Counted from the stretch's first letter, positions 17,895-55,146 are shown. The stretch is DNA of 64,000 bases from Oscillospiraceae bacterium (GCA_009780025.1 WRAV01000002.1:38126-102125), one strand, 5' to 3'. Notes: generated by a model not told the origin, from the letters alone. Numbers and translations: made by a program.

Positions 17895-18377
17895 ATGATA
17901 AAAAACACACCTACAGACAGAGGCCAACACATTGACGATTTACGCGGGGCCATTGAACACCGCGCCACCTGGTTCTACTTGCTGATTAAAGAGGCCAAAA
18001 AGCGCGGGCTGGATTATGACTTTGCCCGGGACGCTATTTTCAGCTGTGGAGCCTTCCACGGTGGGCACAAGTTTGCTAAAACCGACAACCTTGTAGAGTT
18101 CGGCCCAACCTTTGCTACCGAAAACGTCAAGAACATCTTTGAGATGGACGTAACCACCAGCCCGGAAGAAATGTACATAGAGTTCCACTACTGCCCACTG
18201 GTTAGCGCGTGGCAAAAGCTGGGTGCAACCGAAGAGGAGATTGAAATTCTCTGCGATATAGCCATGGACGGTGACCGGGGCATTGCCAGCGCATACCCCG
18301 CCTTTGAGTTCGAGCTGGGTAAAACTATTGCCAAGGGCGACGATGTCTGTCAAGTTTGGTTTAGGAAGAAGAAGTAG
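17895..18377 (+). CDS. L-2-amino-thiazoline-4-carboxylate (ATC) hydrolase-like family protein
   Basis: 160 aa; FHYCPLVSAW...LCDIAMDGD...TIAKGDDVC pattern typical of this family; AGGAG RBS. Confidence 0.7.
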   Translation: MIKNTPTDRGQHIDDLRGAIEHRATWFYLLIKEAKKRGLDYDFARDAIFSCGAFHGGHKFAKTDNLVEFGPTFATENVKNIFEMDVTTSPEEMYIEFHYCPLVSAWQKLGATEEEIEILCDIAMDGDRGIASAYPAFEFELGKTIAKGDDVCQVWFRKKK

Positions 18378-18390
18378 GGGCAAGTGCCCC
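18374..18390 (+). repeat. Short GTAG-REP-like palindrome overlapping a stop codon
   Basis: GTAGGGGC-AAGT-GCCCC; its TAG is the stop codon of the preceding gene. Confidence 0.4.
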
Positions 18391-18411
18391 GCTCACTCGC
18401 CCCAATAAGCT

Positions 18412-18444
18412 ACCCCCGGCCTGTGGTTACAGGTCGGGGGTTTT
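18412..18444. terminator. Terminator between convergent genes
   Basis: ACCCCCGGCCTGT-GGTT-ACAGGTCGGGGGT-TTT. Confidence 0.75.
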
Positions 18445-18447
18445 GCT

Positions 18448-19962
18448 CTAGCTAGCTTCGATAATCCGCACAGGGTATGGGCGTGGCTCGGTGGTGCCGT
18501 CACCCAGCACAGCGTAGTCCTCCAGGCCTAACCAAACGGAGTTCACGCCCCAGGCGTAGACCGCGCCGCTCTCGGTCAACGCAAATGTTCTAAATCCGTT
18601 TATCCAGCCGTGGTCAAGCACAAAATAAGCTGGGGCAACGGCCACCACATTCTCCAGTATCTTTACAGGCGAGAGGGCAATCTCAGTGCCGCCGTCATCA
18701 TCCAAAAGCCATCTTACCACTTCTTCCATTCTCTCTTCGTCAAAAACTTGCTCCCACATATGGCGCTTCGCGTCACCCAAAGAGAATGTCGATCCGTCCC
18801 CGATGAGAGCGCCTCCGGCATTCCCCCAGCCCCAAAGCGTGCCGTCATTGGTTATTACGTAGGCTGTGTTGCCCATCACTGTTATTGACACGACATCTTC
18901 CAAAATCGCAACCGGCTCGTCTCTATCAACACCTGTGCCGTCACCAAGATTAGGAGCCGGCCACCACTGGCTGGGTATCCGGTTGCGGCCCCAGGCCCAA
19001 AGCACGTTATCTGTGGTTATGGCAAAGCCAACTCCCCGAGCTGCGGCTGCGTATACAACGTCATCCATAACCCAGGCGGGCTCCGGCATCGCGACGGTAT
19101 TAACAAAAGCTGTCCAGGTTGGCTCCAGCCCAAGGGTCCACAGCTCGCCGCCTGTGGTTATGGCAAACCAAGCGCAGTGGGATATCGACGCCACATTTTC
19201 CAAAATCGGCGCGGGGTACAGCTGGGTGTTATCAGCGTGCCACCACGGCCCATTCCATCTATATACAACGCCGTCACCGGTTAAGGCAAGGCCGCCGCTG
19301 TTTGTGGGTACGACATCCACCACGTTCTCCAAAATCTGCACTGGCGAGTAGCGGGGCTCGGTGGCGCCGTCACCCAAAGCGACATCAGCCGCGTCAAATC
19401 TGCCACTCAGCCCCCAGGCCCACAGGGTACCGTCCGAGCGAATGGCATACGAGCGATAACCGCCGTTGCTTGCATGGCTGTTGGGCACGTCGGTCGGCAT
19501 GGCCACATAGACCACGTCATCCATGATTCTCACCGGTGAAAGGCGTGTCTCGGTGGTGCCATCGCCCAGCTGTCCAAACCCGTTGCCGCCCCAGGCCCAC
19601 AACGCCCCGTCGGTGGTTATCGCAAACGAATGGTAATGTCCCGCCACCGCAAAAGCCACGTCCTCCATTATCATTACCGGTAGGCTGCGACTTTCGGTGG
19701 TGCCATCACCGATAGGACCGATGCCCCAGCCCCAAAGGCTACCGTCCTCCATCAGTGCTAACGTGTGCTCACAGGCCGCAGAAATCGCCACTGCACCGCT
19801 GGGTTGCCGGAGCGCGTCGGGCTTGGATTCTTCCTCCAGCTCCGGCGGATACTCAGCCGCAACCTCAGTTTCGAGCAAATCGGCCTCAGGCGGCAGCTCC
19901 GTTTGACCGCAAGCCGCTAGCAGAATCACTAGCGCCAGCAAAATACAGCTTATCGCCTTCAT
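18448..19962 (-). CDS. RCC1-repeat (beta-propeller) lipoprotein
   Basis: Lipobox LAAC; repeated A(I/L)TxDGxLW(A/G)WG and LGDGT...SPV(R/K)I units. Confidence 0.85.
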   Translation of the reverse strand: MKAISCILLALVILLAACGQTELPPEADLLETEVAAEYPPELEEESKPDALRQPSGAVAISAACEHTLALMEDGSLWGWGIGPIGDGTTESRSLPVMIMEDVAFAVAGHYHSFAITTDGALWAWGGNGFGQLGDGTTETRLSPVRIMDDVVYVAMPTDVPNSHASNGGYRSYAIRSDGTLWAWGLSGRFDAADVALGDGATEPRYSPVQILENVVDVVPTNSGGLALTGDGVVYRWNGPWWHADNTQLYPAPILENVASISHCAWFAITTGGELWTLGLEPTWTAFVNTVAMPEPAWVMDDVVYAAAARGVGFAITTDNVLWAWGRNRIPSQWWPAPNLGDGTGVDRDEPVAILEDVVSITVMGNTAYVITNDGTLWGWGNAGGALIGDGSTFSLGDAKRHMWEQVFDEERMEEVVRWLLDDDGGTEIALSPVKILENVVAVAPAYFVLDHGWINGFRTFALTESGAVYAWGVNSVWLGLEDYAVLGDGTTEPRPYPVRIIEAS

Positions 19963-53314: not shown

Positions 53315-53359
53315 TCGCAACCGGCACCCGTTAATTATATTTTCGGGGTTTTGCAGCCC

Positions 53360-54274
53360 CTACAGCTCCGACGCCAACAGCACTTCACGCTCAAGCTTAT
53401 ACCCGGTATCTTCCTTGACCCGGCGCTGCACTTGCTCAATGAGTTGAATCACGTCTTTGCAGGTGGCCCCACCCAGGTTGACTATAAACCCCGCGTGCTT
53501 CTCGCTGACTGCGGCGCCGCCCACTCGCAGCCCCTTAAGACCGCACTGGTCAATCAGCGCGGAGGCATAGTTGTCCGGCGGGCGCTTGAATGTGCTGCCA
53601 GCGCTCGGATACTCCAGAGGCTGTTTTTCTCTGCGGCGAGCCATGTAGTCGTCCATTTTTATGCGGATTTCTTCAGGCGGCGCGGGGGTCAGCTTAAATG
53701 TCGCCCCAGTGAGTACACCATCCATTTCCATAAACGCGCTGCGTCTGTAGCTAAAACCCATCTGCGGGGCGGTAAACTCGATAAGGTTTCCGCCGAAATC
53801 CATAAATCCGGCGGTGTGCGCTACATCCTCAATCTGGCCACCGTAAGCACCGGCGTTCATGTAGAGCGCGCCGCCAACCGTCCCCGGGATGCCATAGGCG
53901 AACTCCAGCCCGGCAAGACCCTGTTGCTGGGCAAACCTGCAGAGGTTGCTGAGCTTTGCCCCGGACTGGCAGCTTATAAGAATTTCGCCTTCCCTGCGGA
54001 TTTGAGAGAAACTCTCACCCAGGTGGAGGATTGTGCCATGATAGCCCTCATCCGCGAATAGCATGTTTGAGCCCGCGCCCAGCACCAGCAGCGGGATTCC
54101 CTCCCGGCTGGCAAAAGCCAGCGCCAGAGCGACTTCATCTTGGCTGCCCGGCTCTATGAACAGAGCTGCCGGCCCCCCGATGCGAAAGGTAGACTTCTCA
54201 CCTAATGGAACGTCCCTGGTATAGCCTATGCTATTCTGTGCGAGATGCTCGGCAAATGCCTGGATTTTGTCCAT
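53360..54274 (-). CDS. murB: UDP-N-acetylenolpyruvoylglucosamine reductase
   Basis: TFRIGG.A, LGAGSN.L, GIPGTVGG...MNAGAYG, YRRS, QPLEYPSAGS.FKRP, SEKHAGF. Stop TAG lies in a REP-like head GTAGGGGCTGC. Confidence 0.96.
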   Translation of the reverse strand: MDKIQAFAEHLAQNSIGYTRDVPLGEKSTFRIGGPAALFIEPGSQDEVALALAFASREGIPLLVLGAGSNMLFADEGYHGTILHLGESFSQIRREGEILISCQSGAKLSNLCRFAQQQGLAGLEFAYGIPGTVGGALYMNAGAYGGQIEDVAHTAGFMDFGGNLIEFTAPQMGFSYRRSAFMEMDGVLTGATFKLTPAPPEEIRIKMDDYMARRREKQPLEYPSAGSTFKRPPDNYASALIDQCGLKGLRVGGAAVSEKHAGFIVNLGGATCKDVIQLIEQVQRRVKEDTGYKLEREVLLASEL

Positions 54275-54291
54275 CTGGCAAGCTCCTTTAT

Positions 54292-55002
54292 CTAGTCAAT
54301 GCGGCCAAGTGCTCGCATGAATCTATCGTAGTTGGCGTTTAGAACAAGCTCTTCCGGGAAACCGATTTCCTCCAACATCTCGACAACATCTTCTACCGCG
54401 CCTACTTTTAGGTTTATGTGGGCGTCCGAGCTTAGGACAATGGGCACGCCTACCTGTGCGCAAAGCGCGGCTATCTCGCGGCAGTTGTCTATAGACTGGC
54501 CGCGGCGCATAGAATGAGCGTTCAGCTCTAAAACCTTACCGCAGGCCTTGAACGCCTCGAGCACTGGAACGAGCTCGAACTCGTAGCCTGCCCTATCGCA
54601 GTGGCCGATGACTCGAATAAGTGGGTTTTTGGCTATTTTTATCCAACCGCGGGTATGCTCGGCCACAGTTGCGGGTGCCAGGCAAGGCGGGTGGTAAGAG
54701 GCTATCACCCATTCCAACTGGCTGATAATTTCGTCGGGCAAATCGACCGCGCCATCATAATCCAGTATATTCAGCTCGGCTCCCTTTATGATCTCGATGC
54801 CGTTGATTTCTGTGGGCAGAATACTGGGCAAGGTGCCAAAGTGCACCTTGCTTGCACCGCCGGGCAGAGCCGGGGCATGTTCGGTGAGGCAGAGGAATCG
54901 GTGACCCAGCTCTTTTGCCCTCGCCGCATTTTCTGTGATAGTGGAGTAGGCGTGGTCACAGGCAACGGTGTGGGTGTGGGTATCTCCTACGATGTTTATC
55001 AT
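54292..55002 (-). CDS. PHP-domain phosphatase/hydrolase (YcdX-like)
   Basis: DTHTHT..CDHAYST, TEH, GAELNI, IASYH, IGH, ELN, LSSDAH. Confidence 0.88.
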   Translation of the reverse strand: MINIVGDTHTHTVACDHAYSTITENAARAKELGHRFLCLTEHAPALPGGASKVHFGTLPSILPTEINGIEIIKGAELNILDYDGAVDLPDEIISQLEWVIASYHPPCLAPATVAEHTRGWIKIAKNPLIRVIGHCDRAGYEFELVPVLEAFKACGKVLELNAHSMRRGQSIDNCREIAALCAQVGVPIVLSSDAHINLKVGAVEDVVEMLEEIGFPEELVLNANYDRFMRALGRID

Positions 55003-55068
55003 CTATGGCTTCCTTCCTTGGGGGGCAGTTGATTGCGGGTATAGCTGCATTTAACAAATCCTACAAAC

Positions 55069-55146
55069 GGTCGGGCATGGAAGCCCGACCCTACATAGAT
55101 CTGCCAAAAGTGTTGGAATGTAGGGGCGGGGTTCCATCCCCGCCCG
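55069..55146. repeat. 78-bp head-to-head REP doublet (intergenic copy)
   Basis: GGTCGGGCATGGAAGCCCGACCCTAC, a 25-nt spacer containing TGCCAA, then GTAGGGGCGGGGTTCCATCCCCGCCCG. Confidence 0.9.

Follow-up and report, generated by a model that had tools for sequence, protein, structure and literature searches.

The stretch of DNA considered here, referred to as the window, is 64 kb long and corresponds to positions 38126-102125 of contig C2 in assembly G000 of an Oscillospiraceae bacterium. Window coordinates are counted within that stretch; contigs C2, C5, C17, C24, C29, C36, C47, C60 and so on all belong to G000, other G numbers denote other genomes, and L numbers (e.g. L004-L083) denote homologous loci fetched from other species. 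The assembly comprises 2.06 Mb in 72 contigs, with 53% GC and 94.7% completeness, and the neighbouring genes, which include SpoVG, HprK, MurB, and WhiA, point to a Bacillota organism as host. Scattered through the window are short hairpins headed by the tetranucleotide GTAG, most of which are very probably repetitive extragenic palindromes (REPs) belonging to a system of REPs and REP-associated tyrosine transposases (RAYTs) of the TnpA-REP subclass 2.4 type.

Four main types of unit, A to D, are represented in the window and, as judged by their sequences, they are exactly the types that the RAYT genes of G000 carry within their own reading frames, as the arms described below. Copy numbers refer to genome-wide matches with at most 3 mismatches, for which the reversed-sequence control was 0 for every unit. 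Type A (GTAGGGGCGGGGTTCCATCCCCGCCC) lies on the minus strand at 21283-21308, has 48 copies, and is the same sequence as arm 1 of the RAYT gene on C17. Type C (GTAGGGGTCGCGCCCCTGCGCGACCCGCG, 25168-25196, plus strand, 17 copies) is shared with the arms of the RAYT genes on C47 and C60, and a headless type C unit, 5'-truncated and missing its GTAG, is found at 25243-25264 (+, 13 copies). Type D forms a heads-out doublet with a 27-nt spacer, resembling a REP doublet forming hairpin (REPIN). Its left arm (26210-26237, +, 2 copies) is of the same type as the arms of the RAYT pseudogene on C24, and its right arm (26265-26291, -, 20 copies) has a head decayed to GCAG. Among the relatives compared (31 genomes, 13 of them same-genus genomes without RAYT), only G008 holds matches to the type D units, of about 90% and at about 10 sites. 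Types A and B are combined in two heads-in doublets with a 25-nt spacer. One of them (55069-55146, +) lies between the HprK and PHP genes, joins type B (55069-55094, -, 39 copies) to type A (55120-55146, +, 48 copies), and equals both arms of the C17 RAYT gene with their order swapped. The other (47214-47291, -) lies inside dnaE and consists of a decayed type B (47266-47291, 6 copies) and a type A variant (47214-47240, 37 copies). This dnaE gene (ORF, or open reading frame, 46938-50498, -) encodes PHP, pol III alpha, finger, HHH, and OB domains, and the doublet is translated in frame as 26 codons in a hypervariable linker just after the OB fold; since the linkers of congeneric dnaE genes are unrelated but similar in total length, a clean 26-codon insertion is not demonstrable to the exact base. 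One further REP, of the GCGAACTGTGTTCGC type (43646-43670, -, 16 copies), has no RAYT with such arms in G000, and the arms of L083, from another species, are identical to it.

The initial annotation had treated all the hairpins of the window as one diverse family. GTAG(G)-headed, GC-rich stems do stand at every position that it gave, but only about 9-10 of the roughly 16 hairpins listed here (about two thirds) are true members of repeat families, and 5-6 are single-copy look-alikes. Membership is unsupported for a weak GTAGGC-headed 4-bp hairpin that faces the type A unit (21248-21269, +, 2 copies), for the hairpins at 41783 and 43733-43744 (1-2 copies each), and for two single-copy GTAGGGG-headed hairpins, with stems of 6 bp at 18374-18393 (+) and 4 bp at 53344-53363 (-); a short GTAGGGGCTGCGCCCC hairpin (25290-25306, -, 4 copies) is a weak member. 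The TAG of the GTAG head is the stop codon of four window ORFs, at 18374 (ORF 17895-18377), 25303-25306 (ORF 25303-26184, -), 43741-43744, and 53360-53363 (ORF 53360-54274, -). As a word, GTAGGGG is mildly enriched in the window, with 14 occurrences vs 7.05 +/- 2.6 expected (reached in 1 of 100 shuffles); GTAGGG is not significantly so (29 vs 25 expected), and no Rfam family matches window positions 17000-57000.

The over-representation that the initial annotation had anticipated is found at the scale of the genome. GTAGG is followed by a hairpin at 318 of its 2982 sites in G000 (10.7%), against 2.2-2.7% for six control pentamer heads. Similarly, a perfect stem of 7 bp or more comes directly after GTAG 247 times, compared with 58-117 times for nine control tetranucleotides; GCAG reaches 188, although it is twice as frequent as GTAG. 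The 318 units separate into 230 that fall in 15 clusters and 88 singletons, the latter being roughly equal to the chance expectation, and the figure of 230 is a lower bound because the scanner overlooks bulged units such as the one at 26210. A finer clustering cut yields 24 types with at least 3 copies; overall, at least 10 sequence types are present, with modest numbers of 3-48 copies per type. All share one design, composed of a GTAG head, a 7-9 bp GC-rich stem with a GGG/CCC bottom, a loop of 2-8 nt, and a CCG tail, and they are imperfect palindromes of 20-40 nt with GTAG at one end, as expected for GTAG-type REPs.

With regard to their location, 130 of the 230 clustered units are intergenic, 17 supply the TAG stop of the gene ahead of them, and 79 fall within called ORFs, the first two figures (130 + 17) comparing with a non-coding share of 12% of G000 according to a rough ORF caller. 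Many of the ORF-located units are near over-extended 5' ends, and some are deep within long ORFs. Apparently in-frame units and doublets of this last kind were observed in a 2544-aa ORF on C18 (31121-31199 and 32152-32174), at C22:16119-16148 (1268-aa ORF), and at C47:1957-2037 (713-aa ORF). The mixture of singlets and pairs seen in the window by the initial annotation extends to the whole genome, which contains 118 solitary units, 29 heads-out doublets, 33 tandem pairs, and three heads-in B-25nt-A doublets, these three having related spacers. Spacers are mostly 27-35 nt long in the heads-out doublets and mostly 23-26 nt in the tandem pairs, which often mix types. The 29 inverted doublets with short spacers are arranged like REPINs, yet half of the units are solitary. 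In tandem arrays (e.g. C5:4085-4212, C36:3641-3759, and C34:3735-3851), each REP is a different hairpin type and the 23-26 nt spacers are mutually alike (...CCACGAAC...CGTT ahead of the next GTAG), a pattern that suggests a modular unit of about 50 nt with an exchangeable hairpin.

No transposase had been seen in the window by the initial annotation, which placed the RAYTs elsewhere in the genome, and both points hold: Y1/RAYT matches are absent from the whole of contig C2, and a search with the Pfam Y1_Tnp profile together with a six-frame protein search identified six RAYT-like HUH/Y1 loci on other contigs. Two of them are intact, namely C17:27925-28452 (L001:1336-1863), encoding the 175-aa protein P0001 with arms of types A and B, and C47:3564-4112, encoding a protein of 182 aa that is 56% identical to P0001 and has type C arms. 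The other four are decayed. The copy at C24:16519-17024 (L002:1268-1791), with type D arms, is frameshifted inside its first arm, a frame change that makes the arms look like indel hot spots; the C36 copy, also matching type D, is 5'-truncated at the contig start; the C60 copy, with type C arms, is an N-terminal fragment with frameshifts; and C29:16520-16880 holds a C-terminal fragment (WQ...YIDENP) behind three tandem REPs. These three REPs, of different types and all in arm-2 orientation, run straight into the fragment; at this decayed RAYT locus, a REP array has taken the place of the middle of the gene. The interruption of assemblies by REPs is probably also the reason why RAYT loci are found on small contigs or at contig ends.

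P0001 scores 33.7 bits against Pfam Y1_Tnp (PF01797, cut-off 23). Its best sequence match among solved structures is 4ER8, the TnpA-REP of E. coli (E 6.5e-8, about 21% identity), and the invariant residues H86/H88 and Y159 align to the HUH motif and Tyr115 of this structure. Y115 is reportedly the nucleophile of the E. coli enzyme. An AlphaFold2 model (predicted local distance difference test, pLDDT, 83) was compared with 4ER8 by Foldseek, giving a template modelling (TM) score of 0.57-0.61 and a root mean square deviation (rmsd) of 3.4; the model also resembles IS200/IS605 transposases, 4ER8 being a co-top fold match with the lowest rmsd. The RAYT proteins harbor the motifs PNHVHM and WQRS and a Y motif that reads YIDQNP, YIDTNP, or YIENNP (YIxxNP, the first N being variable).

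The genomic setting of the two intact copies differs. On C17, the RAYT gene is separated by 38 nt from the ABC ATPase gene that precedes it and by 57 nt from the ABC permease gene that follows, with no flanking REP or hairpin, so that it does not form a REPtron, i.e., a RAYT gene flanked by inverted cognate REPs; around the C47 copy, REP doublets occur at a distance of about 1.5 kb on the upstream side and about 0.5 kb on the downstream side. In nine congeners without RAYT, the ABC ATPase and permease genes are directly adjacent, which indicates that the C17 RAYT gene of about 530 bp has itself moved or been acquired; its insertion boundaries are not definable, the spacers between the ABC genes of the congeners being unalignable. 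In addition, RAYT genes (loci L004-L083) average 38% GC outside their arms even in hosts of 50-60% GC (53% in G000), a composition which suggests that the gene is foreign to its hosts and moves horizontally.

A distinctive feature of these RAYT genes is that their own REPs sit in frame inside them, one on each side of the HUH motif and in inverted, heads-out orientation. In the C17 gene, arm 1 is of type A (GTAGGGGCGGGGTTCCATCCCCGCCCG, codons V42-P50) and arm 2 is of type B in inverse orientation (...GACCCTAC), located after the HUH strand; in the C24 copy, the two type D arms form an inverted repeat that is perfect over 28 nt. In the AlphaFold2 model, arm 1 is predicted to form the tip of a beta-hairpin before helix A (residues 43-50, pLDDT about 70), and arm 2 a disordered loop after the HUH strand (residues 98-110, pLDDT <50). 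The arrangement is widespread. Among 80 homologue loci fetched from other species, 76 have recognisable HUH codons, and 67 of these 76 carry GTAGG 40-170 nt upstream and CCTAC 18-140 nt downstream of them, arm 1 lying 91-104 nt before and arm 2 37-51 nt after the HUH codons in most loci. The hosts are mostly Oscillospiraceae, Acutalibacteraceae, Ruminococcaceae, and other Clostridia bins, with a few isolates (e.g. Geosporobacter, Fonticella, Anaerosolibacter, and Fumia). No two of the 67 loci share an arm core, and the two arms of a gene are inverted copies of each other, with an own-partner score of 15.0 vs 4.1 across loci and 52 of the 67 own-arm pairs scoring above the 95th percentile of pairs formed across loci. 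The GTA triplet encodes Val in 63 of the 67 loci, and CCTAC falls in either of two frames, giving Pro-Thr in 49 loci and Leu-Gln in 17. The arms average 69% GC, against 38% for the rest of the gene, and are kept even in genomes of 37-39% GC. In some genes (P0113, P0036, P0013, L082, and L074), extra tandem REP copies are present at the same two sites. Conversely, arm 1 or both arms are missing in L077 (Chloroflexi), L081 (Latescibacterota), L073, and L020, which have a short beta-turn instead; the existence of distant members without arms indicates that the arms are acquired REPs and not ancestral protein sequence. A flip-flop switch operating by inversion between the arms was considered and rejected, the inner segment being in coding orientation at 67 of 67 loci.

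Covariation within arm 1 was assessed on a single class of 27-nt geometry, selected by the position of the tail and not by pairing; owing to the unequal length of the hairpins, the full set of 67 arm-1 sequences yielded no consensus with RNAalifold. In the 27-nt class, 93.8% of stem cells pair, compared with 70.9% after shuffling (0 of 500 shuffles reach the observed value), and 6 of the 8 stem pairs show compensatory changes on both sides. The covariation score is 0.595; shuffled sequences give 0.151 (again, none of 500 attains the observed value), and sliding the partners gives no more than 0.145. One compensatory change, from T:G in L005 to G:C in L004, costs an Ala-to-Pro replacement. Together, these results point to a constraint on the DNA hairpins and not on the peptides alone.

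The distribution of REPs among the 31 relatives follows that of RAYTs. Using the generic pattern GTAGGGGN{12,20}CCCGC, with the same pattern read backwards as a control, RAYT-positive genomes gave hits/control counts of 149/2 (G000), 144/15 (G008), 80/3 (G029), 19/1 (G032), and 12/2 (G025). The 13 other same-genus genomes, which have no RAYT match, gave 0-15 hits, at or near the control level, and an excess of REPs is thus found among the relatives essentially only where a RAYT is found. Copies of the arm sequences were also counted in unrelated genomes: 31 copies of its own RAYT arm sequence are present in the closed 4.2 Mb chromosome of G002, and only 5 in Fumia; five genomes that share one arm type have 19 (G034), 8, 5, 4, and 2 copies. 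In G035, the 2 arm-sequence hits correspond to the arms of the gene only, with no dispersed copy. REP types that are orphaned in G000 match RAYT arms in other species, which fits the suggestion of the initial annotation that several RAYT lineages have been at work, some of them lost or unassembled. At the HprK-PHP site, the spacer measures 175 nt in G000, 78 nt of which are the doublet, and the orthologous spacers in four RAYT-less congeners (44-185 nt) contain no REP. Two independent short-read Logan contigs of this strain (L124 and L125) break off precisely where the type B unit has its GTAG head, at window position 55094.

Several observations do not sit easily with the assignment of these units to an active REP/RAYT system. 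G031 contains REP-like units (14/5), yet no RAYT was found in this 85%-complete genome, and G017 has six RAYT matches (two with an internal stop and others partial) with almost no REPs (4/0). In G000 itself, five or six REP types are without a RAYT in an assembly that is 94.7% complete. The best NCBIfam family for the G000 proteins is NF047646 (REP_Tyr_transpos), but their scores of 65.2, 59, and 41.5 bits do not pass its cut-off of 80; by their sequences, they form a divergent subfamily. The C17 copy sits tightly between two ABC-transporter genes. Finally, there is no direct evidence of movement: four public assemblies of the strain, those that carry the neighbouring PHP gene, are 100% identical at 55069-55146 and offer no contrast between occupied and empty sites, and the congeners (about 50-80% protein identity) are too diverged to provide base-exact empty sites.

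Two alternatives would make the dispersed units something other than mobile repeats. According to one, the hairpins are independent intrinsic terminators or local regulatory stems that resemble each other by convergence, with no mobile family behind them. Several units do lie just past stop codons, 17 of the 230 supply the TAG stop, units are enriched between convergent genes (24% vs 15% of all spacers), and the single-copy window units at 18374 and 53344-53363 could be such terminators. For the clustered units, however, this explanation is effectively refuted, and as a general account it is extremely improbable. A T-rich tract (at least 6 T in the 12 nt past the stem) follows only 13 of 230 units (6%), for which reason the clustered units are not regarded as terminators; near-identical sequences of 26-29 nt recur 13-48 times with reversed controls at 0; units are also found in frame within long ORFs, dnaE included; and the pattern is not in excess in the 13 RAYT-less congeners. 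The initial annotation had itself opposed to its reading a combination of no RAYT, no genome-wide excess, and terminator function, and what was found is the reverse on all three counts. The other alternative, that the dispersed units are debris of many decayed RAYT genes, the GC-rich arms surviving as relics that were never separately mobile, is also very unlikely. Some units are clearly such relics, as seen in the C29 array next to its C-terminal fragment and in the decayed C36, C60, and C24 copies, which have kept their arms; against this, the six-frame RAYT protein search finds six loci only, which cover about 12 of the 230 units, the doublet spacers (25-35 nt) are unrelated to RAYT coding sequence, and different types are mixed within tandem arrays. 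A related proposal, in which the dispersed doublets derive from the RAYT gene by internal deletion, was discarded, their spacers being unlike the coding sequence beside the arms.

The function of the arms is less clear-cut. That they have none is a substantial possibility, somewhat short of an even chance: REPs would have inserted in two tolerant surface loops, and repeated insertion or gene conversion would hold them close in sequence to the REPs of the genome at large, the conserved I-V-G and P-T/L-Q codons offering GTAG/CTAC-like targets. The in-frame REPs of subclass 2.4 have been read in this manner, as tolerated insertions in peripheral loops (Quentin et al. 2018, PMC6006769), and the predicted location of both arms in surface loops of lower model confidence, the extra tandem copies at the same sites in some homologues, the lack of arm 1 or of both arms in L077, L081, L073, and L020, and the frameshift inside arm 1 of the C24 copy are all in agreement with it. 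It accounts less well for the nearly fixed position of the arms in most loci, for the persistence of GC-rich islands in genes of genomes with 37-39% GC, for their retention in bin G035, where no dispersed copy was found, for the association of one REP type with a gene clade across very different hosts, and for the stem pair preserved between L004 and L005 at the cost of an Ala to Pro change. The contrary proposal, which is put forward tentatively and with some doubt, is that a Clostridia-centred clade has incorporated the REPtron into the ORF, the cognate REP pair being selected, translated, and kept as two hairpins by compensatory evolution despite the amino-acid cost, and serving as a linked master or seed copy, as an autoregulatory site to which the enzyme binds, or as both. 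If true, one gene of about 530 bp would be sufficient by itself to found REPs and could seed a new REP population after horizontal transfer.

E. coli TnpA-REP binds, cuts, and rejoins GTAG-hairpin single-stranded DNA in vitro. If the REP/RAYT assignment is right, the RAYTs described here would by analogy bind the GTAG-hairpin on single-stranded DNA, cut it, and rejoin it, and this cutting and joining would mobilise the REPs, spreading and maintaining them. The embedded arms would keep the enzyme and its cognate substrate physically linked, and it is proposed that a transferred RAYT gene would therefore bring its own REP templates; seeding of REPs or autoregulation may be the role of the embedded pair.

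G000 contains a second dispersed repeat, of about 450 nt, which is found at C2:1-660 (L131) and at about 19 other places (e.g. C5:3338-3988, C15:11072-11725, and C29:15857-16477). It is usually preceded by an inverted copy of its own last 180 nt or so, which results in a foldback of about 640 nt with terminal inverted repeats of about 180 bp. The 19 copies of at least 300 nt are 71-93% identical, have no Rfam match, and are absent from 30 relatives, apart from a 60-nt hairpin piece in G008 and G020. A REP lies within 400 nt of 12 of these 19 copies, often as a tandem REP array on one side.

To our knowledge, the study of REP/RAYT systems has so far centred almost entirely on Proteobacteria, with Cyanobacteria contributing to a smaller degree. 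Here, a small genome of 2.06 Mb with Bacillota-type gene content harbors a rich system of this kind, comprising six RAYT loci and no fewer than 10 REP types. Members of the RAYT gene family are also present in at least 67 further species, most of them uncultured Clostridia of the gut and rumen. The embedded co-varying pair provides a testable handle on the long-open question of how RAYTs and REPs stay matched: since the substrate is written in the gene of the enzyme, changes in specificity could be read from pairs of arms and dispersed REPs across genomes. From a practical standpoint, REPs break short-read assemblies, and annotators should be aware that they introduce in-frame peptides into real proteins (dnaE and the 2544-aa ORF).

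GTAG REPs, RAYTs, REPINs, and REPs within host genes are already established (PMC3733652, PMC3116915, PMC5581495). By contrast, the second arm before helix A, the co-varying pair that brackets HUH, the prevalence in Clostridia, and the covariation of in-ORF hairpins appear to be undescribed; the available texts of Di Nocera et al. (2013), Bertels (2017), and Quentin et al. (2018), Fig. S10 aside, make no mention of paired HUH-bracketing REPs or of Clostridial REPs.

The system can be compared with several known ones. IS200/IS605 TnpA Y1 enzymes share a homologous HUH/Y1 fold and, presumably, the recognition of a hairpin plus tetranucleotide on single-stranded DNA, but in the present case no TnpB accompanies the gene, no element ends lie beyond it, the hairpins are scattered on their own, and the NCBIfam IS200 profile reaches 27 bits with a cut-off of 55. 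The REPs and bacterial interspersed mosaic elements (BIMEs) of E. coli, with their TnpA-REP (YafM, 4ER8, the 'REPtron'), are closer: GTAG-headed imperfect palindromes, a HUH/Y1 fold, and few RAYT copies relative to many REPs are common to both. However, REPs surround the gene in E. coli and form a translated part of it in the present case, sequence identity is only about 21%, and G000 has at least 10 REP types and several RAYT paralogues. The REPIN-RAYT system of Pseudomonas fluorescens (Bertels and Rainey 2011, PMC3116915) is similar in that inverted doublets with short spacers are common beside singlets, RAYTs are patchily distributed among relatives, and each REP type is specific to its RAYT. 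It differs in that G000 has fewer copies per type, 118 of its 230 units are solitary, mixed-type tandem arrays are frequent, and RAYT copies are multiple and partly decayed, with the gene present in 1 of 14 congeners searched; in this respect, the G000 RAYT resembles a mobile element more than a gene under the long-term vertical inheritance reported for groups 2 and 3. Palindromic repeats lying in frame in host genes, among them the gene for DNA polymerase III alpha (dnaE), and GTAG heads that provide a TAG stop have been described in other phyla along with the Rickettsia palindromic elements (Di Nocera et al. 2013, PMC3733652), in a survey whose text does not mention Clostridia or Firmicutes. 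Both the in-frame repeats, including those in dnaE, and the TAG stops recur in G000, but the best-conserved intragenic site is here the transposase gene itself.

Set against its published description, subclass 2.4, which corresponds to RAYT group 4 (Quentin et al. 2018, PMC6006769), is the closest known counterpart. It is characterized by the motifs NH[IFV]H, WQ, and YIxNNP, by long REPs with three G-C pairs at the bottom of the stem, and by in-frame REPs within tnpAREP, generally between HuH and Y, called a "remarkable and unique feature". The G000 proteins have the NH[IFV]H and WQ motifs and, at the Y motif, YIxxNP with the first N variable, their REPs have the same GTAG-GGG...CCC-G geometry with a stem of about 8 bp as a listed 2.4 REP (GTAGGGACAGACTTTATGTCTGTCC), and arm 2 is likewise a REP in frame between HuH and Y. 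The differences are that the subclass also has flanking REPs, of which the intact C17 copy has none, that its listed hosts are Cyanobacteria, Bacteroidetes, and scattered phyla and those found here are Clostridia, and that a second REP is here located before helix A, giving rise to an inverted, co-varying pair around HUH.

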